A DNA stretch of 64,000 nucleotides from an uncultured delta proteobacterium (lineage in GTDB: Bacteria; Desulfobacterota; Binatia; JACPRU01): the NCBI GenBank assembly GCA_963745025.1, contig CAVUWD010000006.1:192001-256000 (forward strand). Reading direction: 5' to 3'. Position 1 is the first letter of the stretch, and the number at the start of each line of letters is the position of its first letter. The position numbers were made by a program, and so were the translations under genes. Below the pieces are notes generated by a model. It had not been told where the DNA came from and made no database searches. It saw only the letters and a program-made list of their open reading frames with translations. Shown piece after piece: positions 19,301 through 30,585 of this stretch.

Positions 19301-20455
19301 ATGGCGAACGAGCCCGTGATCGACGGCCACTGCGACCCGCGCTTCGCCTCGGTGCGAGACGCCTTCATCGCGAACTTCGAGGCAGGGCGGGAGGTCGGCG
19401 CATCGTTCGCCGCGACGGTGAACGGTGAGTTCGTGGTAGACCTCTGGGGCGGCTACGCCGACGCGGCGAGCACGCGGCCGTGGGAGCGCGATACCCTCAT
19501 CAACGTGTTCTCGACGACGAAAGCGATGACGGCGCTCTGCGCCCACATCCTCGTCGATGGCGGCGCACTGGACGTGGATTCCCCCGTCGCGCGTTACTGG
19601 CCTGAGTTCGTGCAGGCGGGGAAAGAGAGGATCACGACGCGCCAACTCCTGAGCCACACAGCCGGGCTCGCGGGGATCCGGCAGCCGCTCCCGACCGAGG
19701 CGCTGTACGATTGGAAGCGAATGATCGAGGTGCTCGCCGCCGAAGCGCCCTGGTGGGAGCCCGGCACCGCCAACGGCTACCATCCTCTGACCTACGGCTA
19801 CCTGGTCGGGGAGGTGATCCGGCGCATCAGCGGAAAAACACCGGGAGCATTCTTTCGCGACGAGGTCGCCGCGCCCCTCGAGGCGGACTTTCATATCGGT
19901 CTCCCCGAATCCGAAGACGACCGCGTAGCGGAGATGGTGCCCCCGACCACGGGAGAGCTTGCGGCGGTGGGGGCACCGACGACTATCGACCCTGAAACGC
20001 TCAGCGGCCGGGCGATCGCCAACCCGCCGCTCCGAGCCGAGTTTGCCAACCGGCCCGAGTGGCGGCGAGCAGAGATTCCGGCGGCGAACGGCCACGGCGA
20101 CGCCCGGTCGGTGGCGCGGGTGATGGCGCTCCTCGCTTGCGGCGGAAAGCTTGATGGCGTGCGGCTGCTCAGCGAGCAGACGATCGCCAAGGCAATCGCA
20201 GAGCAGCGCTACGCCAAAGATCTCGTCCTCGGGTTCAAGATGCGCTGGGGCCTCGGCTTCATGCTGACCAGCCGACAGCTTCCAGTTGGGCCGAACCCGC
20301 GGACGTTCGGCCACGGAGGATGGGGCGGCTCACTCGGCTTCGCCGACCTCGACGCCCGCGTGAGCTGGTCCTACATTATGAACAAGATGTCGCCCGGCAC
20401 GGCAGGCGACACGCGCGTCGCGGGGATGCTCGCGGCGCTCTACGGCGCGCTGTAG
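19301..20455 (+). CDS. Serine hydrolase, beta-lactamase/EstB family
   Basis: FSTTK (SxxK), LLSHTAGL, GYHPLTYG, FGHGGWGGS. Confidence 0.92.
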   Translation: MANEPVIDGHCDPRFASVRDAFIANFEAGREVGASFAATVNGEFVVDLWGGYADAASTRPWERDTLINVFSTTKAMTALCAHILVDGGALDVDSPVARYWPEFVQAGKERITTRQLLSHTAGLAGIRQPLPTEALYDWKRMIEVLAAEAPWWEPGTANGYHPLTYGYLVGEVIRRISGKTPGAFFRDEVAAPLEADFHIGLPESEDDRVAEMVPPTTGELAAVGAPTTIDPETLSGRAIANPPLRAEFANRPEWRRAEIPAANGHGDARSVARVMALLACGGKLDGVRLLSEQTIAKAIAEQRYAKDLVLGFKMRWGLGFMLTSRQLPVGPNPRTFGHGGWGGSLGFADLDARVSWSYIMNKMSPGTAGDTRVAGMLAALYGAL

Positions 20456-20631: not shown

Positions 20632-20648
20632 CTGGCACGGAATTTGGG
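20632..20648 (+). promoter_or_regulatory. Possible sigma-54 (-24/-12)-like promoter of the hydrogenase operon
   Basis: CTGGCACG-GAAT-TTGG has a perfect -24 box and correct spacing, but GG instead of GC at -12. It ends about 25 nt before the hypA start. Confidence 0.35.
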
Positions 20649-20673
20649 AGTCGAGGTGTTCGGAGGCTCGGCC

Positions 20674-21060
20674 GTGCACGAGCTGTCGATCTCGAGCGGG
20701 ATCATCGAGGTAGCGCGACGGGCAGTCACGTCGCCGCCGCTTTCGGCTGCGAGGGTTCTCCGGGTGGATGTCCGGATCGGGCGTCTCACCGGGATCGTTC
20801 CCGACATCCTTCGGCACTACTACGCGCTCCTGACGGTCGGTACCGAGCTCGAAGGGTCCGTCCTGGCCGTCGAGGTGGTTCCGGTCCGTGGCCGGTGCAG
20901 CGACTGTTCGGCGGCCTTCGAGATCGATGACCTGAGCTTCGGCTGCCCATTTTGCGGCTCGGGATTCTCGGAGATCTTCTCGGGGAAAGAGCTCGAGGTC
21001 GTTTCGCTCGAGACCGCCGAGGATGGCAACGAGAATCGCGAGGTGGCGTATGGAAATTGA
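20674..21060 (+). CDS. hypA: Hydrogenase maturation nickel metallochaperone HypA
   Basis: MHELSI N-terminus (GTG start), CSDC and CPFC zinc motifs, SGKEL. Confidence 0.93.
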   Translation: MHELSISSGIIEVARRAVTSPPLSAARVLRVDVRIGRLTGIVPDILRHYYALLTVGTELEGSVLAVEVVPVRGRCSDCSAAFEIDDLSFGCPFCGSGFSEIFSGKELEVVSLETAEDGNENREVAYGN

Positions 21061-21742
21061 GATTGGGCGCAAGGTTCTCGAGACGAACGACCGGATTGCC
21101 GATCAGAACCGGAGGGTCTTCGACGTACTCGGCGCCTTCGTCGTGAACCTGATGAGCGCTCCGGGAAGCGGCAAGACGTCGCTCCTCGAGCGCACGCTCG
21201 CCGCCGTCGACGGCACCCTGCGCACCGCCGTGATCGAAGGCGACGTGCGCGGCTCGCTCGACGCCGATCGGCTGGCGCGCTTCGAGCTGCCGATCGTCCA
21301 GATCAACACGGACCCGCTCTTCGGCGGCGAGTGTCATCTCGACGCGCCGATGGTGCGTGATGCGCTCGAGCGGCTTCCCCGCGAGTGGTTCGACCTCGTC
21401 GTCATCGAGAACGTCGGCAACCTGGTCTGCCCGGCGGAGTTCCGCGTCGGGGAGGATCTCAAGGTGATGGTGCTCTCCGTCGCCGAAGGCGACGACAAGC
21501 CGCTCAAGTATCCCTTGATGTTCCAGGAGTCCGCGTTGCTGCTGCTCAACAAGATCGATCTCCTCCCTCACGTCGACTTCGACGTCGCGCGCTTTCGCGC
21601 CAACGCCGCGCGAGTCAATCCGCGCCTCGAGGTCATCGAGACCTCGGCGCGGACGGGAGAAGGCATCGATCGGTGGATCGACTGGCTTCGTGCTCGAGTC
21701 GGCGAAGCCGCGAGCGGGAGGCGCTCATGTGGCGAGACCTGA
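21050..21742 (+). CDS. hypB: Hydrogenase nickel incorporation GTPase HypB
   Basis: SAPGSGKT, ECHLDA, ENVGNLVCPAEF, EGDDKPLKYP, NKID. Confidence 0.95.
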   Translation: MEIEIGRKVLETNDRIADQNRRVFDVLGAFVVNLMSAPGSGKTSLLERTLAAVDGTLRTAVIEGDVRGSLDADRLARFELPIVQINTDPLFGGECHLDAPMVRDALERLPREWFDLVVIENVGNLVCPAEFRVGEDLKVMVLSVAEGDDKPLKYPLMFQESALLLLNKIDLLPHVDFDVARFRANAARVNPRLEVIETSARTGEGIDRWIDWLRARVGEAASGRRSCGET

Positions 21743-22890
21743 ACGGTTCGATCGTCCCTCGAGCGGCTGAGGCCGAGGACTGGGAGGGCTGGCCCGGCTC
21801 GCGCTGGCAGGAGCGTGGCGTCTCGCGCCGCGCCTTTCTGCGCTTCTGCGCTGCGATGACTGCGACGCTCGCCTTGCCCGAGCGCTACTTGATGCGCGTC
21901 GCGCACGCGCTCGAAGCGGTTCGCCGCCCCCCGCTCGTCTGGCTCGAGTTCCAGGATTGCGCCGGCTGCACGGAGTCGTTCCTGCGCGCGAGCCGACCCT
22001 CGGTGGGCGACATCGCGTTGGACATCCTCTCGGTCAATTACCACGAGACCATCATGGCGCCGTCGGGAAAGGCTGCCGAAAAATCGCTCCGCGACACGAT
22101 CGAACAAGAGAAGGGCAAGTACCTCGTGGTCGTCGAGGGATCGATTCCGACCAAGGAAGGTGGCGTCTACTGCACCATCGGCGGGCGCACCGCGCTCGAC
22201 ATCGCCCGCGAGGTATGCGGCCAAGCGGCCGCCACGATCACGGTCGGCGCCTGTGCCTTCTACGGCGGCTGGCCCTCGGCACGGCCGAACCCGACGGGCG
22301 CGGTCGGCGTCGCGCAGGCGGTTCCCGGCATCACGCTGATCAACCTACCGGGATGTCCCCCGAACGCGGTCAACATCACGGCGACGGTCGTCCACTACCT
22401 GACCTTCGGGGCACTGCCGGCGACGGATCAGCAGGGGCGACCGCTCTTCGCTTACGGAGAGCGGATCCACGACCGCTGCGAGCGTCGGGCGCATTTCGAC
22501 GCCGGCGAATTCGTCGAGGAGTGGGGCGACCAGGGGCACCGGCAGGGCTGGTGCCTCTACAAGATGGGCTGCAAGGGCCCGGAGACCTACCACAACTGCC
22601 CGACGGTGCGGTGGAACGACGGCACGAGCTGGCCGGTCGGCTCCGGACACGGCTGCGTGGGCTGCGCCGAGCAGTACTTCTGGGACACCATGTCGCCCTT
22701 CTACCGCCGGCTCCCGGAGGTCCCGGGTGCGGGGATACAGACCACGGCGAATCGAATCGGCGGGTGGATCGTCGGCGGCACGGCCGCTGCCTTCGCCGCC
22801 CACGGCGTGGCATCGGCCGTGCGGGCCAAGCTCGTTCCGCGCGCGCCGCAGCAGGATGCTGAGGAGCCCTCGACGAAAAGCGAATCGTGA
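21727..22890 (+). CDS. hyaA: Group 1 [NiFe]-hydrogenase small subunit with Tat signal and C-terminal membrane anchor
   Basis: SRRAFLRFC twin-arginine motif, QDCAGCTES, GACA..GG, PGCPPN, IHDRC, CLYKMGCKGP, NCP..WP..GHGCVGC, C-terminal TM helix. Confidence 0.95.
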   Translation: MWRDLNGSIVPRAAEAEDWEGWPGSRWQERGVSRRAFLRFCAAMTATLALPERYLMRVAHALEAVRRPPLVWLEFQDCAGCTESFLRASRPSVGDIALDILSVNYHETIMAPSGKAAEKSLRDTIEQEKGKYLVVVEGSIPTKEGGVYCTIGGRTALDIAREVCGQAAATITVGACAFYGGWPSARPNPTGAVGVAQAVPGITLINLPGCPPNAVNITATVVHYLTFGALPATDQQGRPLFAYGERIHDRCERRAHFDAGEFVEEWGDQGHRQGWCLYKMGCKGPETYHNCPTVRWNDGTSWPVGSGHGCVGCAEQYFWDTMSPFYRRLPEVPGAGIQTTANRIGGWIVGGTAAAFAAHGVASAVRAKLVPRAPQQDAEEPSTKSES

Positions 22891-22909: not shown

Positions 22910-24619
22910 ATGGCGAAGATCGCGATCGATCCGATCACCCGCATCGAGGGACATCTGCGCATCGAAGCCCAGGTCGAAGGCGGAAAGGTCGCCGACGCCT
23001 GGAGCTCGAGCACGATGTTCCGCGGCATGGAGCTCGTGCTGAAGGGGCGCGATCCGCGCGACGCTTGGCTCTTCGCGCAGCGCATTTGAGGCGTTTGAAC
23101 GACGGTTCACGCCAACTGCTCCGTGCGAGCAGTAGAAAACGCCCTCGGTATCGAGATTCCGGACAACGCCCGGATCATCCGCAATCTGATTGCGGGCATC
23201 CAGTACGTCCAGGACCATGTGGTCCACTTCTATCATCTGCACGCGCTCGACTGGGTCGATATCACGAGCGCGCTCCAGGCCGATCCTGCCGAGACCTCGA
23301 AGCTCGCGCAGTCGCTTTCGCCTTGGGCGAAATCGAGCGCGGTCTACTTCAAGAGCGTGAAGGACCGTCTCAAGAAGTTCGTCGATTCCGGCCAGCTCGG
23401 GCTCTTCGCCAACGGTTATTGGGGGCACCCGGCGTACAAACTGCCTCCCGCCGCGAATCTCATGGCGGTCGCTCATTACCTCGAAGCGCTGGACTGGCAG
23501 CGCGAGGTCATTCGCATTCACGCGATCCTCGGCTCGAAGAATCCCCACCCGCAGACCTATCTGGTGGGAGGCATGGCGATCCCACTCGACCCGAACAGCT
23601 CGGCGGCGCTGAACGCCGACAAGCTCGCCCTTCAACGCCAGCTCCTGGTGCAGGCGAAGCAGTTCGTCGATGAGGTCTACGTGCCCGACCTCCTCGCCGT
23701 CGCCTCGTTCTACAAGGAATGGGCGGGGATCGGTGCGGGGATCGGCAACTACCTCGCCTGCGGCGACTTTCCCCTTGATTCGAGCGGCGATCCGTCGCGG
23801 CTGTGGCAGCCCGCGGGAGTGATCCGGAACCGCGACCTCGCCAAGATCCATCCCTTCGAGCACCAGAAGGTGACGGAGTACGTGACACACTCCTGGTACG
23901 AATACTCAGGCAGCGACGGCGCTTCGAAGCACCCGTGGGACGGCGAGACGAATCCTCGCTACAGCGGCCCCAAGCCGCCCTACGAGTTCCTCGACACCGA
24001 CGGCAAGTACTCTTGGCTCAAGGCGCCGCGCTACGAGGACGAGCCCATGGAGGTGGGGCCTCTCGCGCGCATGCTCGTCGCTTACGCTTCGGGGCACGGA
24101 GCGGTCAAGACGGCGGTAACCGGCGTCCTCGCTCATCTCGGCGTGGGCCCCGAGGCGCTTTTCTCCACCCTCGGACGAATCGCGGCTCGCGGCATCGAGA
24201 CCCAGGTGACCGCGGCCGCGCTTCTCGACTGGCACGATCAGCTCGTCGCCAACATCCGGCGAGGCGATCTGCGCATCCACAACGGTGCGAAGTGGGATCC
24301 ATCTCGCTGGCCTCCCGAAGCGCGCGGCTTCGGCTTCCACGAGGCGCCGCGCGGTGCGCTCGGTCACTGGGTGCGGATCGAAAAGGGTGCGGTGTCGAAC
24401 TACCAGTGCGTGGTGCCGAGCACCTGGAACGCCTCGCCGCGCGATGCCAAGGGAAAGCGCGGTCCCTACGAGGCGGCGCTGCTCGAGACGCCGGTCGCGG
24501 ACCCGGAGAAGCCTGTCGAGATCCTACGCACCGTCCACTCCTTCGATCCCTGCATGGCGTGCGCCGTTCACGTGAGCGGAGTCGGGCGCCGGCCAATCAC
24601 GCGGATCCAGGTGGCGTAG
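22910..24619 (+). CDS. hyaB: Group 1 hydrogenase large subunit (569 aa) with two in-frame TGA codons at the N-terminal CxxC, predicted Sec60 and Sec63
   Basis: ATG after AGGAAGGAG. DPITRIEGH..MFRGME..QRI-TGA(23087)-GV-TGA(23096)-TTVH continues in frame into ORF 23123..24619 (HFYHLHALDW, EAPRGALGHW, VVPSTWN, SFDPCMACAVH plus a 15-aa cleavable tail). Confidence 0.92.
23090..23113 (+). promoter_or_regulatory. Stem-loop 1, directly after the first TGA (candidate SECIS; encloses the second TGA)
   Basis: GGCG-tt-TGAAC-[GACG]-GTTCA-CGCC, 9 bp with a 2-nt bulge. Confidence 0.55.
23115..23133 (+). promoter_or_regulatory. Stem-loop 2, putative SECIS for the hydrogenase UGA codons
   Basis: Perfect 7-bp stem ACTGCTC-[CGTGC]-GAGCAGT starting 17 nt after the second TGA. 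The loop is nearly identical to the redoxin hairpin loop (CGTGT). Confidence 0.72.
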
Positions 24620-24621
24620 TC

Positions 24622-25308
24622 ATGACGGACACGACACAAACGACGGCCCCGACAGTCCCGGTGGCTCCCTACCGGCAAGTCTACGTATGGGAGTTCCCGG
24701 TGCGTCTCACGCACTGGGTGAATTTCGCGGCGATCGGCGTACTCTCGGTGACCGGCTTCTACATCGGCCACCCATTTCTAGCCGGCGGCGGCTCGCTCAT
24801 GAGCTGGATGAGCGCCGTTCACCGCCTGGCCGGGTACGCGCTCGTCGCGAGCCTCCTCCTCCGCGTTTATTGGGCCTTCGCCGGGAACCAGTGGGCGTCC
24901 TGGCGGGCGCTATTCCCATGGCTCACGCCCGATGGGCGAGCAGCGATGCGGCAGACCTTCCTCTATTACACCTTCGTGCGGCGCGAGCCGCCGCGCGAGG
25001 TCGGTCACAACCCTCTCGCCGGCATGGCGTACTCGGCGGTCGTGGCGCTCCTCGCGGCGGAGGTGGCGAGCGGGTTTGCCCTCTATTCGATGGGGCGGGG
25101 CGGGGGCTGGACGATCGCCTTCGGCTGGGTCTTCTGGATCGCCAGTCCGCAGATCGTGCGCCTCGCGCATCATCTCATCATGTGGCTGCTCCTGGGCTTC
25201 GCGGTCCACCACGTCTACAGCTGTGTGCTGTTGGAGGTGGAAGAGCGAAACGGCCTCGTCACCAGTATCTTCTCGGGTTACAAGCTCGTCCGCAGGAGCG
25301 TGCACTGA
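24622..25308 (+). CDS. hyaC: Ni/Fe-hydrogenase b-type cytochrome subunit
   Basis: VYVWEFPVRLTHW, GHNPLA, RLAHHLIMW, VHHVY, SIFSGYK. Confidence 0.93.
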   Translation: MTDTTQTTAPTVPVAPYRQVYVWEFPVRLTHWVNFAAIGVLSVTGFYIGHPFLAGGGSLMSWMSAVHRLAGYALVASLLLRVYWAFAGNQWASWRALFPWLTPDGRAAMRQTFLYYTFVRREPPREVGHNPLAGMAYSAVVALLAAEVASGFALYSMGRGGGWTIAFGWVFWIASPQIVRLAHHLIMWLLLGFAVHHVYSCVLLEVEERNGLVTSIFSGYKLVRRSVH

Positions 25309-25838
25309 AGACGTTGGTGCTCGGGTGCGGCAACGTTTTGCTCGGCGACGACGGGGCCGGCGTGTGGGTGATCGAGCAACTGCGGTGCGCCTACGTGTTT
25401 CCGGCGAACGTGTCGCTCGTCGAAGCGGGAACGCTCGGCCTCGATCTCCTCGCGGAGTTCGATGGCGTAGAGCGTCTGTTGGTCGTGGACGCGGTCGCCG
25501 CCGGCCGCGCGCCCGGAGACCTCGTCCGCCTGGAGGGAGACCAGGTGCCCTCGGTGCTCGAGCTCAAGACATCGCCTCACCAGGTGGGGCTCGCGGATCT
25601 CTTGGCCGGGGCCAAGCTCCTCGCCCGCTGGCCGCGCCAAGTCGTGCTCTGGGGCGTCGAGCCGGCGCTTCTCGATCCGGGAACGAGGTTCTCGCCCGAG
25701 GTCCAGCGCATGCTGCCGTCCCTGGAGGCGGCGGTACTCGACGAGCTCGCCCGCTGGGGGATCGAGGTCATGCCTCTCGAGGATGCACCGCCGCCGGCTC
25801 TGTGGTGGCTTCCGCCGACGACGGAGGGGGCGCGGTGA
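25305..25838 (+). CDS. hyaD: Hydrogenase maturation protease
   Basis: LVLGCGNVLLGDDGAG, EAGTLG, LVVDAV, SPHQVG. Probable CTG start overlapping the cyt b stop (CTGA) with AGGAG 6 nt upstream; alternative TTG at 25314. Confidence 0.88.
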   Translation: MKTLVLGCGNVLLGDDGAGVWVIEQLRCAYVFPANVSLVEAGTLGLDLLAEFDGVERLLVVDAVAAGRAPGDLVRLEGDQVPSVLELKTSPHQVGLADLLAGAKLLARWPRQVVLWGVEPALLDPGTRFSPEVQRMLPSLEAAVLDELARWGIEVMPLEDAPPPALWWLPPTTEGAR

Positions 25839-28114
25839 GCCAGCCGACCGCATGCCGCGTCTTGGTCGAGGGCATCGTCCAGGGAGTCGGATTCCGCCCC
25901 TTCGTGCATGCGATCGCGCGCCAGTACCAGCTGGCCGGCCGCGTGCGCAACACGAGCCACGGAGTGGAGATCGAGGTCGAGGGAGAGCGCGAGGAGATCG
26001 GTGAGTTCGTCGCAGCGCTGCGCGATCGCCCGCCGCCGCTCGCGCGCATCGAGCGGATCGAAGCGCAGGAGATCGTGCCCTCCGGGGTCGAGGGCTTTCG
26101 CATCGATCCCTCGGCCGACGGCGATGGCTTCCTTCCGATCTCGGCTGACATCGCGACTTGCGAGGAGTGCCTGCGGGAGGTCGAGGACGTCTCCGATCGC
26201 CGCTTCGGCTACGCCTTCACGAACTGCACGAGCTGCGGGCCGCGCTTCACGATCCTCCGCTCGGTTCCCTACGACCGGCCGAACACGACGATGGCCGAGT
26301 TCGCGATGTGCTCCGCGTGCCGCGCGGAGTACGAGGATCCAACCGACCGCCGTTTCCACGCGGAGCCCATCGCCTGCCCGCAGTGCGGGCCTTCGCTGGC
26401 CCTGCTCGACGCCACCGGACGCACACTGCCGGGTGACCCGCTGACCGGGATCCGCCGCGCGCTCGCGGACGGGCGTATCGTCGCGATCAAGGGAATCGGC
26501 GGTTTCCATCTCGCTTGCGACGCGCGGCAGGAGATGGCGGTGCGGCGACTGCGCCGCCGCAAGGTGCGCGAGGGCAAGCCGTTCGCCCTGATGGCGGCGG
26601 ACCTCGCCGAGGCCGAGCGACTCTGCTTCACCTCTGCGCGGGAGCGGCGCCTCCTCGAGTCGCGTGCGCGGCCGATCGTGGTTCTACGCGAGCGACCCGA
26701 TTCGGGGATCGCCGCCTCGGTCGCCCGGCCGCTTTGCCATCTCGGCGTCATGCTGCCCTACTCGCCGCTCCATCCTCTGCTCTTCTCCGACGCCGCCTGT
26801 CCGCGCGCGCTCGTGCTCACCAGCGGGAACCGCTGCGGCGAGCCGCTCGCTCGCGACAACGGCGAAGCGCTCGGGCGGCTCGGCGGAATTGCCGACCTCT
26901 TTCTCGTCCACGACCGCTCGATCGAGGTGCGCTGCGACGATTCGGTCGTCCGCGTGGTGGGCGGAGAGGAGCTGCCGATCCGACGCTCGCGCGGCTACGC
27001 CCCGTATCCAGTCCGTCTACCCCTCGAATCGCCGCCGCTGCTCGCGTGCGGGGCCGACCTGAAGAGCACGGTGTGCGTCGCGCGCGGCCGCCACGCGTTC
27101 CTCTCACCACATGTCGGTGACCTCGAGGACGCGGAGACCTGGCGGTCGTACGCGCGGATGGCAGCGCACATGGAATCCATCTTCCGCGTGCGGCCCGAGG
27201 CAATCGTCCACGACGCTCACCCGGACTACTTCTCGACCCGCTACGCCCTCGGGCGCGATCGGTCGCTGCCGCATCTCGCCGTGCAGCACCACCACGCCCA
27301 CGTGGTCTCCTGCATGATCGAGAGCGAGCTGGCGGGAAGCGTGATCGGCGTCGCTTTCGACGGCACGGGTTACGGCGCCGACGGGGCGATCTGGGGCGGC
27401 GAGTTCCTGGTGGCGGACTACGCGTCTTTCGAACGTGGCGGCCACCTCGCTTACGTGCCGATGCCGGGAGCTGCCCGGGCCGTCCATGAGCCCTTCCGCA
27501 TGGCACTGGCGCACCTGATCGCGGGATGCGGTTCCACGCGGGGCATCGCCGCGGCTGCGGTCGGGGCGACGGAGGCGGAGATCGCCGCCGTCCAGTGGCA
27601 GATCGCTCACGCCGTGAATGCGCCGCTCACCTCGAGCATCGGGCGGCTCTTCGACGCGGTCGCCTCGCTCGCCGGCATCCGTCACCGTGCGCTGTACGAG
27701 GGTCAGGCGGCGATGGAGCTCGAGGCTTGCGCCGCCCGCGGAGAGACGGGGTCGTATCCGTTCCCGATCACCGGCGAGCGGCCGACGGTCGCCGATCCCG
27801 GCCCGCTCGTCGCCGCGGTCGTGGAGGAGATCGCACGGGGGATCGCGCCGTCGATCGTGAGCGCCCGCTTCCACAACTCGGTGGCGCGGATGGTCGTCGA
27901 GATGTGCGAGCGGATCCGCGCCGCGACCGGTCTCTCCCGCGTGGTCTTGACCGGAGGAGTATTCCAGAACGCGACGCTGCTCGAGCAAGCCGTCGAGCGG
28001 CTCGCGGCGCGCGGCTTCGCGGCGCACCGCCACCGCAAGGTGCCCCCGAACGACGGCGGCATCGCGCTCGGTCAAGCGGCGATCGCCGCCGCGCGCCTGA
28101 CGGAGGACCGCTGA
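25835..28114 (+). CDS. hypF: Carbamoyltransferase HypF
   Basis: GIVQGVGFRPF acylphosphatase domain, zinc-finger CxxC pairs, KGIGGFHLACDA, QHHHAH, PNDGGIALGQ. Confidence 0.95.
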   Translation: MSQPTACRVLVEGIVQGVGFRPFVHAIARQYQLAGRVRNTSHGVEIEVEGEREEIGEFVAALRDRPPPLARIERIEAQEIVPSGVEGFRIDPSADGDGFLPISADIATCEECLREVEDVSDRRFGYAFTNCTSCGPRFTILRSVPYDRPNTTMAEFAMCSACRAEYEDPTDRRFHAEPIACPQCGPSLALLDATGRTLPGDPLTGIRRALADGRIVAIKGIGGFHLACDARQEMAVRRLRRRKVREGKPFALMAADLAEAERLCFTSARERRLLESRARPIVVLRERPDSGIAASVARPLCHLGVMLPYSPLHPLLFSDAACPRALVLTSGNRCGEPLARDNGEALGRLGGIADLFLVHDRSIEVRCDDSVVRVVGGEELPIRRSRGYAPYPVRLPLESPPLLACGADLKSTVCVARGRHAFLSPHVGDLEDAETWRSYARMAAHMESIFRVRPEAIVHDAHPDYFSTRYALGRDRSLPHLAVQHHHAHVVSCMIESELAGSVIGVAFDGTGYGADGAIWGGEFLVADYASFERGGHLAYVPMPGAARAVHEPFRMALAHLIAGCGSTRGIAAAAVGATEAEIAAVQWQIAHAVNAPLTSSIGRLFDAVASLAGIRHRALYEGQAAMELEACAARGETGSYPFPITGERPTVADPGPLVAAVVEEIARGIAPSIVSARFHNSVARMVVEMCERIRAATGLSRVVLTGGVFQNATLLEQAVERLAARGFAAHRHRKVPPNDGGIALGQAAIAAARLTEDR

Positions 28115-28116
28115 CC

Positions 28117-28419
28117 GTGTGCCTCGGTGTTCCCGGCAAGGTGCTCGAGGTCCAGGGAAACGTTGCCGTCGTGGATTTCTTCGGCCTGCGTCGGCCGGTA
28201 CTGCTCGACGTCGTCGACGAGCCGGTGGCTCCGGGCGACTTCGTGCTCAATCACGTGGGCTACGCCATCCGCCGGATCCCGCCCGACCAGGCGCAGGCGA
28301 CGCTCGCGTTCTACCAGCAGTTGCTCGGCGAGGCGGCCGAGGACGCGATGGCCGCCGACGTTCGTGGAGAGATCACAGGCACCGGCGAGCCAAAGGGACC
28401 CGACGATGGATCCGACTGA
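28117..28419 (+). CDS. hypC: Hydrogenase assembly chaperone HypC
   Basis: (M)CLGVPGKV N-terminus and GDFVLNHVGYAI. Confidence 0.92.
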   Translation: MCLGVPGKVLEVQGNVAVVDFFGLRRPVLLDVVDEPVAPGDFVLNHVGYAIRRIPPDQAQATLAFYQQLLGEAAEDAMAADVRGEITGTGEPKGPDDGSD

Positions 28420-29545
28420 GCAGGCGCGTCGCGAACTGAAGTTCCGCGATCCCGGGAAAGGTCGCGCGCTCGCCGCAACGCTCGCCCGCGTGGTCGCCGA
28501 CCTCGGGCGGGCTCCGGTTTCGGTCATGCACGTCTGCGGTAGCCACGAGCAGGCAATTGCGAAGTTCGGATTGCGCGCCACCTTTCCGAAGGGGCTCGAC
28601 GTGATCATGGGGCCGGGCTGCCCGGTGTGCGTGACCGACGTTCCGGAGGTGGACGAGGCGGTGGCGCTGGCGGAGCAGGGAGTGCGCGTCGCCACCTACG
28701 GCGACATGCTGCGGGTACCCGGGAGCGCCGCCTCGCTCGCCGACGCCCAGGCGGAAGGCGCGAGCATCGACGTCGTCTATGGCGCGGCGCAGGCGGTCGA
28801 GGTCGCGCGTCGCACCGAGGACGAGGTGGTATTCTTCGCCTCCGGCTTCGAGACGACGGCGGTGGCGACCGCGGCCGTGCTGCTCGGCCATCCGCCCACG
28901 AACTTCTCGGTGCTGTCGGCGCACAAGTACATTCCCCCGGTCATGGAGATCGTTGCCGAGATGCCCGGGACGCGCATCGAGGGGTTCCTCGCCGCCGGCC
29001 ATGCCGCAACCATCACCGGCTGGGGGGTCTTCGAGCCCTTCGTCGAGCGCCACGGGATCCCGGTGGTCGTGGCCGGGTTCGAGCCGCTCGACATCCTGGC
29101 GGGGCTCGTGAAGCTGGTCGATCTCATCGCCGAAGGTCGGCCGCGCGTCGAGAACATGTATCCGCGCTGCGTGACGCGAGAGGGGAATCGGAACGCCCAG
29201 GAGCGACTCTGGCGGGTCTTTCGGCCGACCGGGGGATGCTGGCGGGGGATCGCCCACGTCCCCAACGGGAACCTGAGACTCCGCGACGAGTTCGCCGAGT
29301 TCGATGCGCGCCGCCGCTTCATGATCGACCTCCGCGGCGTCCGGATGCGCGCTCCGCGAGCGCTCGTCGACCAGTGCCGCTGCGGCGAGATCATGTCCGG
29401 CACCGCCTCGCCACGCGATTGCCGACTCTTCGGGAGAGAATGCGTGCCTGAGACGCCCGTCGGCGCGTGCATGGTGAGCAGCGAAGGCACGTGCAAGATC
29501 TGGCACCTGTACGGCGGCCACCCGGATCTCGGGAGCCGGGCATGA
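28406..29545 (+). CDS. hypD: Hydrogenase formation protein HypD
   Basis: MHVCGSHE, GPGCPVCVT, GFETT, PVGACMVSSEGTC. Confidence 0.95.
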   Translation: MDPTEQARRELKFRDPGKGRALAATLARVVADLGRAPVSVMHVCGSHEQAIAKFGLRATFPKGLDVIMGPGCPVCVTDVPEVDEAVALAEQGVRVATYGDMLRVPGSAASLADAQAEGASIDVVYGAAQAVEVARRTEDEVVFFASGFETTAVATAAVLLGHPPTNFSVLSAHKYIPPVMEIVAEMPGTRIEGFLAAGHAATITGWGVFEPFVERHGIPVVVAGFEPLDILAGLVKLVDLIAEGRPRVENMYPRCVTREGNRNAQERLWRVFRPTGGCWRGIAHVPNGNLRLRDEFAEFDARRRFMIDLRGVRMRAPRALVDQCRCGEIMSGTASPRDCRLFGRECVPETPVGACMVSSEGTCKIWHLYGGHPDLGSRA

Positions 29546-30585
29546 CGCTTCGGTCGGCGGCGCGCGACGAGCGCATCGGGCTCAAACACGGTGCAGGTGG
29601 CCGAGCCATGCGCGCGCTCATCGAGCAGGTTCTCGCCCGCGGCTTCATCGACCCCGCGGGCGCGAACGGCTTCGGTCTAGCGGCGATGGACGACGGTGCC
29701 GCCTTGCGCATTGGGGATCGCTGGCTCGTGATCACCACCGACTCGCACGTCATCCACCCGATCTTCTTCCCCGGGGGTGACATCGGGCGACTCGCCGTCG
29801 CGGGTACGGTCAACGACCTCGCGGTGATGGGGGTGACCGATATCCTCGGCCTGACCTGTGCGGTGATCGTCGAAGTCGGCTTCCCGCGTGCGGATCTCGA
29901 GCGCATTCAGCAATCCATGCAGGCGACTTGCCTGGAGGCCGGCACGACCGTGCTGACCGGCGACACCAAGGTGATGGGGAAAGGGGAGATCGACGGTATC
30001 GTCATCAACACCACTGGAATCGGTCTCACCAGCCGAGTGGTCCCCGACCGCGGACTCGGCCCCGGAGATCGCATCCTCGTCAGCGGAACGATCGGCGATC
30101 ATGGGCTCGCCATTCTCGCCACTCGCCACGGCTTGGAGCTGGAAGGCGAGATCCGTTCCGACGTTACTCCGCTCGGAGGTCTGGTGCAGACGGTGCTCGC
30201 CGCCGCCGGCGATGGGGTCGTGGCGATGAAGGATCCGACGCGCGGGGGCCTCGCGAGCGCCCTCCACGAGATGGCGGAGAAGAGCGAGGTCGGCGTCCTC
30301 CTCGACGAGGCGGCGATCCCGGTTTCGCCGGCGGTTCGTTCGGCCGCCGAACTCCTCGGCATCGATCCGCTGCACGTGGCGAACGAAGGCAAGGCGGTGA
30401 TCGGGGTGCACCCCGAGGCGGCGGAGAAGGTTCTCGCGGCGCTACGCGCCCACCCCGCGGGCCTCGACGCCGCGATCGTCGGCACCTGTGTCGCGGAGCC
30501 GATCGGGCGGATCATCGTCGACACAGGCTTTGGGCGACGCCTGCTGGTCGAGCCGGAGGGCGAGCCTCTGCCTCGCATCTGCTGA
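29542..30585 (+). CDS. hypE: Hydrogenase expression/formation protein HypE
   Basis: HGAGG, TTDSH, GTVNDLA, DPTRGG, ANEG, C-terminal PRIC. Confidence 0.95.
   Translation: MTLRSAARDERIGLKHGAGGRAMRALIEQVLARGFIDPAGANGFGLAAMDDGAALRIGDRWLVITTDSHVIHPIFFPGGDIGRLAVAGTVNDLAVMGVTDILGLTCAVIVEVGFPRADLERIQQSMQATCLEAGTTVLTGDTKVMGKGEIDGIVINTTGIGLTSRVVPDRGLGPGDRILVSGTIGDHGLAILATRHGLELEGEIRSDVTPLGGLVQTVLAAAGDGVVAMKDPTRGGLASALHEMAEKSEVGVLLDEAAIPVSPAVRSAAELLGIDPLHVANEGKAVIGVHPEAAEKVLAALRAHPAGLDAAIVGTCVAEPIGRIIVDTGFGRRLLVEPEGEPLPRIC

Follow-up and report, generated by a model that had tools for sequence, protein, structure and literature searches.

What is read from two in-frame TGA codons that stand at two of the four metal ligands of a hydrogenase? 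The question is raised by a gene for a hydrogenase large subunit at positions 22910–24619 of the forward strand of the window, the whole stretch of 64,000 nucleotides analysed here (contig CAVUWD010000006.1, positions 192,001–256,000, from the genome of an uncultured delta proteobacterium); coordinates below are those of the window. As judged from sequence, the gene most likely encodes a membrane-bound, cytochrome-b-linked Group 1 [NiFeSe] hydrogenase in which both UGA codons of the N-terminal ligand motif are read as selenocysteine (Sec, U), a reading that the sequence evidence supports well and that we consider probable. The gene is not unique to the source genome; it is one member of a widespread and under-annotated variant, which is common among bacteria of sediments.

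The large-subunit frame (22910–24619, +) is open throughout its 569 codons, except for two TGA codons, and ends with a TAG stop codon. The first TGA is codon 60 (23087–23089, +) and occupies the column of the first cysteine (Cys) of the N-terminal motif in Cys-type homologs; the second is codon 63 (23096–23098, +) and occupies the column of the second Cys. The local DNA reads CGC ATT TGA GGC GTT TGA ACG ACG GTT CAC, with the read-through product R-I-U-G-V-U-T-T-V-H. In solved homologs, the first column holds the terminal Ni ligand and the second the ligand bridging Ni and Fe, as described for the N-terminal motif (PMC13582414, PMC8020662). The C-terminal ligand motif, D-P-C-M-A-C-A-V-H, has ordinary Cys codons for C548 and C551 (C548-M-A-C551-A-V-H554, 24551–24571, +) and is followed by a 15-residue tail of the type removed by a maturation protease. 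An earlier note on this DNA had proposed that both Cys codons of the N-terminal motif of a [NiFe] large subunit are TGA, in a 569-codon frame that is otherwise intact, keeps ordinary Cys in its C-terminal motif and lies in an undamaged operon. The DNA is identical to that given in the note, and the frame and the C-terminal motif are as it described them; alignments place the TGAs on the two Cys positions of RxCGxCxxxH in a Group 1 [NiFe] large subunit, and profile matches for all the cluster genes show the operon around it to be intact.

Both ligand motifs of Group 1, RxCGxCxxxH and DPCxxCxxH, are present, with U at two of the Cys columns; the small subunit is a twin-arginine protein with Fe–S domains, and the operon also encodes a membrane partner and an endopeptidase. 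Among the proteins of the PDB, the Allochromatium vinosum enzyme ranks first (3myr_B, 748.6 bits, residues 3–554), followed by Salmonella Hyd-5 and Escherichia coli Hyd-1, and the 3myr alignment puts the two U on the two Cys of QRICGVCT. The equivalog models of E. coli Hyd-1 and Hyd-2 score far below their cut-offs (PRK10170, 636.6 against 1101, and 623.8 against 969), and none of the NCBIfam equivalogs passes its cut-off for the window protein or for seven other U-type proteins, that is, those with U in the N-terminal motif. Classical [NiFeSe] HysA was considered and rejected. The window protein reaches 398.1 against a cut-off of 780 with NF045518 and 545 against 600 with NF033181, the seven other U-type proteins score 520.8 to 588.7 against the cut-off of 600, and the first position of the C-terminal motif is not Sec, since C-M-A-C is encoded by Cys codons. 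The small subunit of O2-tolerant Group 1d enzymes has two extra Cys at the proximal cluster, with C-x-C-C instead of C-x-G-C; the small subunit of the window reads Q-D-C-A-G-C-T-E-S at the first extra-Cys position, without the 1d-type proximal motif.

A candidate selenocysteine insertion sequence (SECIS) starts 16 nucleotides (nt) past the second TGA. This hairpin, ACUGCUC-CGUGC-GAGCAGU (23115–23133, +), has a 7-bp stem (23115–23121 with 23127–23133) and a 5-nt loop, C-G-U-G-C (23122–23126), and was assessed by folding, covariation, codon bias and the bacterial SECIS (bSECIS) model. Its loop lies 23 nt past the second TGA and 32 nt past the first. The segment 23113–23135 folds at −10.2 kcal/mol (z −3.43), a value equalled by one of 200 shuffles. 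According to the bSECIS model (PMC13188914), the loop has 3–9 nt and the upper stem 4–16 bp, a G occupies one or other of loop positions 1 and 2 and often has G or U after it, the distance from UGA to loop is 16–37 nt and the energy is −7.5 kcal/mol or lower. The loop and stem of the hairpin fall within these sizes, G is at loop position 2 and is followed by U, and both spacings and the folding energy lie inside the published limits; Cys homologs align at the UGA codons, and the model's machinery genes, selA, selB, selC and selD, are found in the genome.

The hairpin region was aligned over 118 loci (113 distinct rows, no indels). Of the loop positions, G37 and U38 do not vary in any of the 118 rows, and 112 of the 113 distinct ones have an xGUGx loop; for these 113 the covariation score is 0.154, compared with 0.080 in shuffles; none of 500 shuffles reached it and all slid controls were lower. 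Pair 31–45 occurs as UA (33 rows), AU (21) and GC (14), pair 32–44 as GC (62) and CG (14), and pair 33–43 as CG (102) and UA (7). Most of the unpaired cells are held by a second stem register with one bulged C. Because the stem occurs in two registers, pairs were counted for the named structure and for both registers; in the better of the two, at least 6 bp are formed in 105 of the 113 rows, with 24 distinct stems. Part of the compensation proceeds via amino-acid changes, from Ala to Ser or Gly, in the 3′ arm. RNAalifold, applied to the 118 rows, recovered only the top three hairpin pairs together with invariant coding pairs. The covariation statistics are inflated by the kinship of the rows, and a comparison with Cys-type relatives in an unselected sample therefore weighs more.

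This sample consists of the best 80 metagenome loci for the window protein, chosen regardless of TGA, of which 78 have a readable N-terminal motif and two do not. The motif is C-G-V-C in 49 loci, U-G-V-U in 18 and C-G-V-U in 11; N-terminal Sec codons thus occur in 29 of the 78 relatives, the second motif codon being TGA in every one of these 29, and U-G-V-C in none of the 78. The C-terminal motif is C...C in all 77 loci where it can be read. The Arg codon of the 3′ arm is NGA (CGA or AGA) in 29/29 U-types, as against 5/49 Cys-types; in the window operon, 106 of 132 Arg codons are CGC or CGG. For the Val codon that provides the G of the loop, GTG is used in 28/29 U-types and 12/49 Cys-types, Ile being frequent in the latter, and a stem of at least 6 bp is formed in 26/29 and 13/49, respectively.

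Two further observations concern this region. A 5-bp hairpin that includes the second TGA, UGAAC-GACG-GUUCA (23096–23109, +), is also predicted and is present in Cys-type genes as well; since every pair consists of coding positions that never vary, covariation gives no information on it. Locus L201, a Cys-type (TGT...TGT), has a hairpin identical to that of the closely similar C-G-V-U loci L207, L209 and L211, which looks like a recent switch from Sec to Cys, or from Cys to Sec, with the SECIS still in place.

The two codons recur widely. A motif scan with a degenerate DNA pattern (20.5 specified bases; one genome per species, about 1.2 × 10^12 sites) yielded at least 118 loci, each from a different species genome, with U-G-V-U, and all the matches listed lie in a hydrogenase large-subunit context. 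Since fewer than one match is expected by chance (our own arithmetic), the feature occurs far beyond chance. The record titles name Nitrospirota/Thermodesulfovibrionia, Chloroflexota/Anaerolineae, Methylomirabilota, Acidobacteriota and 'Deltaproteobacteria' bins. Both TGAs are also present in another species of the genus (genome G001), whose protein is 85% identical; between it and the window the DNA has hardly changed from the first TGA to the end of the hairpin, although synonymous differences are common outside this stretch. In codons 1–59, synonymous-only and amino-acid-changing differences stand at 17:2 for G001, 16:3 for locus L032 and 21:4 for L183. The differences are mostly silent, which indicates purifying selection and in-frame translation of the segment 5′ of the TGAs. 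Contigs that span both codons were also obtained from four libraries, two of DNA and two of RNA, made in four studies of sediment and rice-paddy samples; among the differences listed for these sequences, which are contigs and not reads, none falls within 23066–23259, and the presence of the locus in an RNA library is no proof of transcription.

Two of the related copies are disrupted. The G001 ortholog (L024 and L028, G001:C11:8378-10085) consists of two overlapping frames near codons 410–417, a frameshift that is either an assembly indel or the mark of a damaged copy in that bin. The U-G-V-U copy L091 (record CP070788.1, genome G334) enters an unrelated frame about 225 residues past the motif and may be in decay following loss of the Sec trait, or may reflect assembly indel errors.

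The source genome contains the machinery for Sec insertion. One tRNA-Sec was found (76.5 bits, anticodon UCA, 8-bp acceptor stem, G73, long extra arm), and selA (571 bits), selB (397 bits) and selD (385 bits), all above curated cut-offs, are adjacent on one contig. The selD gene (L017, G000:C20:20417-21343, −) itself has a Sec codon at G-U-A-A-K, with a hairpin of 8 bp and a GGC loop starting 17 nt past the UGA. Nothing above cut-off was found in the genome for Sec-type formate dehydrogenase (TIGR01553). ARAGORN reported 52 tRNAs, including one standard 72-nt tRNA-Cys(GCA) and one tRNA-SeC, and the weaker Rfam tRNA-Sec matches are Leu, Ser, Tyr, Thr, Gly and similar tRNAs. The Cys identity base of tRNA is U73, and the tRNA-SeC here has G73. 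No gene resembling the Cys-recoding tRNA-ReC was detected by ARAGORN or Rfam in this bin, which is 92.65% complete, and no second Sec-like tRNA in five other U-type genomes examined. The independent bin G001, of the same genus, has selB and a tRNA-Sec; among ten other U-type genomes, selB is present in all five tested and tRNA-Sec in eight of the ten. In the window operon, TGA ends seven of the eight genes where their family profiles end and is thus an ordinary stop codon in this organism.

The records closest to the window protein are titled Methylomirabilia or Methylomirabilis (83% identity to L032) or are database fragments (80–85%), and the nearest full-length Cys-type proteins have 69–77% identity. 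Of the 120 best database proteins, 45 are such fragments of 495–498 amino acids (aa); those printed begin with V/M-R-A-V-E (498 aa) or M-E-D-A (495 aa), for example P0003 and P0009. The 498-aa open reading frames (ORFs) start at the GTG in the SECIS loop (23123), and P0003 is exactly that ORF. The fragments represent U-type genes that gene callers have truncated at this GTG, and the uptake hydrogenase is systematically mis-annotated in this way. In studies of H2 metabolism in sediments, wetlands and groundwater, a common uptake hydrogenase has therefore probably been annotated wrongly.

The distribution of the two forms was followed in trees, both built with FastTree and with local support only. 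In the first (116 rows; loci lacking a full-length ORF of 520–620 aa with both motifs were excluded), U-G-V-U formed a single clade (88 UU rows and one CU row, support 97); this clade was rejected as an effect of ascertainment bias, its rows having come from a U-only pattern. The second has 235 rows, with 119 database proteins added and P0001 to P0003 left out. In it the Cys and U forms are interleaved: CC needs 16 changes, and at least 11 of them are forced by well-supported branches. The phylum of the window also has a distinct Group 1 lineage with proteins of about 546 aa (L173 of G293, L171 of G175 and L174 of G109) and the motifs R-T-U-G-V-U-T-M-T-H and R-A-C-G-V-U-T-Y-T-H; the scanning pattern missed it, so the figure of 118 underestimates the N-terminal Sec forms. 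The absence of U-G-V-C, together with the presence of C-G-V-U, suggests that the bridging position was converted first.

These results bear on several claims of the earlier note. It had suggested looking for homologs in which TGA alternates with TGC, and alternation of TGA with TGC or TGT is found at exactly the two motif columns. Profile and tRNA searches located selA, selB, selC and selD, which it had asked to have confirmed; where relaxed selection would have spoken against its proposal, codons 1–59 are under purifying selection and the operon is intact; and its remark that gene callers would split the gene is borne out by the 45 fragments among the 120 best matches. Its picture of an independently evolved active site, taken as a singular case, is not supported: the gene belongs to a widespread family with U-G-V-U in at least 118 species genomes, with C-G-V-U forms too, and with Cys and Sec members interleaved.

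Other explanations were weighed against Sec at both codons. SECIS- and SelB-dependent read-through might insert Cys, by way of tRNA-ReC or, at scarce selenium, of Cys-tRNA-Sec, and so yield an ordinary Ni(Cys)4 enzyme at least part-time; the earlier note had named Cys insertion by a variant tRNA as its alternative. In Group 4 hydrogenases, tRNA-ReC-like genes occur in about 56% of UXXU genomes but in about 2.3% of other Sec-type genomes (PMC13582414), and the interleaving of Cys and U forms, with its forced changes, and the unchanged hairpin of L201 would fit a near-neutral exchange. The tRNA set described above for the 92.65% complete bin, a single standard tRNA-Cys(GCA) and a single tRNA-SeC with G73, the other Rfam matches being standard tRNAs, makes this explanation unlikely, as does the failure to see a second Sec-like tRNA in the five other U-type genomes. 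It is also conceivable that only one UGA, most plausibly the second, is efficiently decoded as Sec, the first being read poorly or differently, with mixed or mostly truncated products. The 11 C-G-V-U loci and the lack of U-G-V-C among the 78 would agree with this, as would the spacing of 23 nt at the second UGA, which is nearer than 32 nt to the 17 nt of the selD hairpin. Both spacings, however, lie within the published 16–37 nt (PMC13188914), U-G-V-U is commoner than C-G-V-U (18 against 11) and is kept across phyla, and a leaky first codon would be costly in the only Group 1 enzyme found in the genome, this gene being the one large subunit of that group recovered with the window protein as query. 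We regard such partial decoding as distinctly improbable.

A pseudogene or an assembly or sequencing artefact, or synthesis of no more than the 498-aa product that starts at the GTG (23123), is very improbable. Gene callers do give exactly that ORF (P0003), and both the G001 ortholog and the L091 copy are broken; but the two TGAs are present in at least 118 species genomes and on 18 metagenome contigs, codons 1–59 are under purifying selection, the full maturation operon is intact and the 498-aa product would be without two of the four metal ligands, which leaves this explanation close to refuted. Least credible of all is a code in which TGA is a sense codon throughout the organism (such as table 4 or 25). 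Nothing beyond the two codons speaks for it, and it is refuted by the seven of eight operon genes that stop at TGA and by the restriction of the two TGAs to Cys columns.

Some points weigh against the reading of both UGAs as Sec. For every member of the family it is a prediction from sequence, as is the action of a single SECIS on two UGAs 9 nt apart. The genome is a bin, 92.65% complete and 7.6% contaminated, and its Sec genes and the hydrogenase gene lie on different contigs. No tRNA-Sec was found in the U-type genomes G193 (94% complete) and G334 (none above 42.5 bits), the latter being the genome with the disrupted hydrogenase gene. A stem of 6 bp is reached, in one register, by 13 of the 49 Cys-type loci too, which means that the coding sequence itself accounts for part of the hairpin. 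No curated Rfam SECIS family matches 23000–23250 at E values up to 10, where two chance-level matches to microRNA and snoRNA families were obtained; bacterial SECIS elements are described as diverse (PMC13188914), and this result is thus no argument against a SECIS. The enrichment of tRNA-ReC in Group 4 UXXU genomes (PMC13582414) makes Cys insertion a live alternative for the motif in general. Sec engineered at the same positions of E. coli Hyd-1 left 3% (C76U) and 13% (C79U) of native activity, and these variants were almost inactive at 10% O2, with loss of O2 tolerance (PMC8020662); with such low activity, the benefit of Sec here is not obvious.

If both codons are read as Sec, the product would be a periplasm-facing, membrane-anchored Group 1 uptake enzyme, its small subunit exported by the twin-arginine translocation (Tat) pathway, and electrons would pass to the b-type cytochrome and on to quinone. 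Sec from UGA 60 would be a terminal Ni ligand and Sec from UGA 63 would bridge Ni and Fe; the two C-terminal ligands would stay Cys, giving a predicted Ni(Sec)2(Cys)2–Fe site. SelB loaded with Sec-tRNA-Sec would attach to the GUG loop and supply Sec to the first UGA, and a second SelB complex would supply it three codons on, the single in-gene hairpin directing both events. The same possibility, one hairpin for both UGAs, was raised for Group 4 by Takano et al. (PMC13582414). Three points here are inferred: insertion of Sec and not of Cys, the use of one hairpin by both codons, and activity of the enzyme.

A broader proposal is tentative, and we give it somewhat less than an even chance: a large branch of Group 1, common in the environment, would carry two selenolates, one of them bridging, would use a single SECIS, and would have arisen stepwise from CC through CU to UU, never through UC, with many gains and losses. 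If this is true, Sec at the 'wrong' positions would be adaptive in anoxic, low-H2 sediments, for instance through a higher affinity for H2, and not a handicap. Group 1 contains the best understood [NiFe] hydrogenases. Studies of [NiFeSe] enzymes and of engineered Hyd-1 have pointed to a single 'special' place for Sec, within the C-terminal motif. A naturally selected site of the Ni(Sec)2(Cys)2 type, in which one selenium bridges, would be a new natural test of chalcogen tuning, that is, of its effects on H2 affinity, catalytic bias and O2 sensitivity, and the gene would offer a clean system for studying the decoding of two UGAs in close succession by SelB with one SECIS. Selenium limitation may, in addition, constrain H2 oxidation in sediments, wetlands and groundwater.

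Among known hydrogenases, the Hys enzymes of Desulfovibrio vulgaris and Desulfomicrobium baculatum (5jsu, 1cc1) share with the predicted enzyme the Group 1 affiliation, the periplasmic location, a Sec ligand on Ni and decoding by SelB and a SECIS. They differ in having just one Sec, in place of the first Cys of the C-terminal motif, and in being soluble proteins of about 500 aa without a cytochrome b; they are also distant from the window protein (323 bits, residues 178–558 only). The membrane-bound [NiFe] enzyme of A. vinosum (3myr) is the nearest solved structure and has the motifs RICGVCT and DPC-x-AC, but with four Cys ligands. Its operon has Isp proteins between the subunit genes, whereas in the window the small- and large-subunit genes are adjacent and are followed by cytochrome b. 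The E. coli Hyd-1 variants C76U and C79U (Evans et al. 2021, PMC8020662) carry Sec in a membrane-bound Group 1 enzyme at the two corresponding positions and show that such sites assemble and turn over; they also have a lower KM (Michaelis constant) for H2. They are, however, single substitutions, introduced by amber suppression into an O2-tolerant enzyme, whereas in the window both positions are naturally substituted and the small subunit has the standard C-x-G-C proximal motif. Given the handicap of engineered Sec at these positions, nature's frequent use of them is the surprising part.

N-terminal Sec in [NiFe] hydrogenases is already known, and UXXU in Group 1 is an extension of it. Takano et al. 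(2026, Front Microbiol, PMC13582414) described CXXU, UXXC and UXXU in Group 4 in silico and called UXXC and UXXU previously unrecognised. The Group 4 UXXU genes resemble the window gene in having Sec codons in the N-terminal and not the C-terminal Ni motif, with a 9-nt offset between the two UGAs, one SECIS-like hairpin further downstream whose loop has G among its first two positions, and a sporadic, repeated occurrence of N-terminal Sec; in one subgroup a Val GUG codon supplies the conserved loop G as its first base, and Cys types, with Ile instead, lack it. They differ in that Group 4 enzymes are energy-converting multisubunit complexes facing the cytoplasm, and the window gene belongs to a Tat-exported Group 1 uptake enzyme with cytochrome b. 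UXXC also occurs in Group 4 but in none of the 78 loci here, and tRNA-ReC, which is frequent in Group 4 UXXU genomes, was not found here.

According to the same article, Baltazar (2011) reported N-terminal CXXU in two Group 1 sequences and one Group 3 sequence. The Group 1 cases have a predicted bridging Sec, as do the C-G-V-U loci L148, L171 and L174 and the 11 metagenome loci of that form; they are two sequences with one Sec each, whereas the window gene has Sec codons at both positions. Zecchin et al. (2018, PMC5812927) listed for Ca. Sulfobium a membrane-bound, quinone-linked '[NiFeSe] (HysLS)' enzyme, giving no details of it and detecting none of its peptides; Ca. Sulfobium bins are among the U-G-V-U loci of the motif scan. 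The available part of PMC9961374 makes no mention of N-terminal Sec. In the literature searched, UXXU was tied to hydrogenases only in PMC13582414, two reviews using UxxU for other families, and no description of Group 1 UXXU was met with, although supplementary tables, such as those of Takano et al., may list such sequences. The earlier note had known of no characterised natural example of such a site; this stands as regards characterisation, and in silico the Group 4 UXXU and Group 1 CXXU sequences (PMC13582414) are precedents.

The large-subunit gene lies in a cluster whose genes, all undamaged, are in the order hypA, hypB, small subunit, large subunit, cytochrome b, protease, hypF, hypD and hypE, all on the forward strand. 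The nickel metallochaperone gene hypA (20644–21060) matches Pfam PF01155 with 87 bits, and the next ORF, a hypB-like GTPase whose start codon is not fixed (21023–21742), matches PF02492 (CobW/HypB/UreG) with 73.2 bits. The small-subunit gene (21820–22890; start approximate, at a GTG just 5′ of S-R-R-A-F-L-R-F) reaches 446.8 bits with TIGR00391 (hydA; cut-off 179.5) and also matches PF01058 and PF14720; its product has the twin-arginine motif SRRAFLRF, C-A-G-C at the proximal-cluster motif and a hydrophobic C-terminal segment. Downstream of the large subunit follow the b-type cytochrome membrane subunit (24622–25308; PF01292 Ni_hydr_CYTB, 90.9 bits over the full profile, 1–179) and a maturation endopeptidase of the HyaD/HybD type (25308–25838, start approximate; TIGR00072, 140.5 bits, above cut-off; PF01750). 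The carbamoyltransferase gene hypF (25865–28114; TIGR00143, 774.6 bits, cut-off 466.1), hypD (28430–29545; TIGR00075, 388.5 bits) and hypE (29572–30585; TIGR02124, 380.7 bits) complete the cluster, the last two scoring above their cut-offs and all three starts being approximate. No hypC was recognised between hypF and hypD, where a 106-aa ORF (28119–28439) has no Pfam match, and no NCBIfam model matched the upstream part of the hypD ORF. Just 5′ of the hyp genes, at 19301–20455, lies an ORF for a LipL-like esterase of the serine beta-lactamase fold (232.5 bits, cut-off 650), which is unrelated to the hydrogenase.

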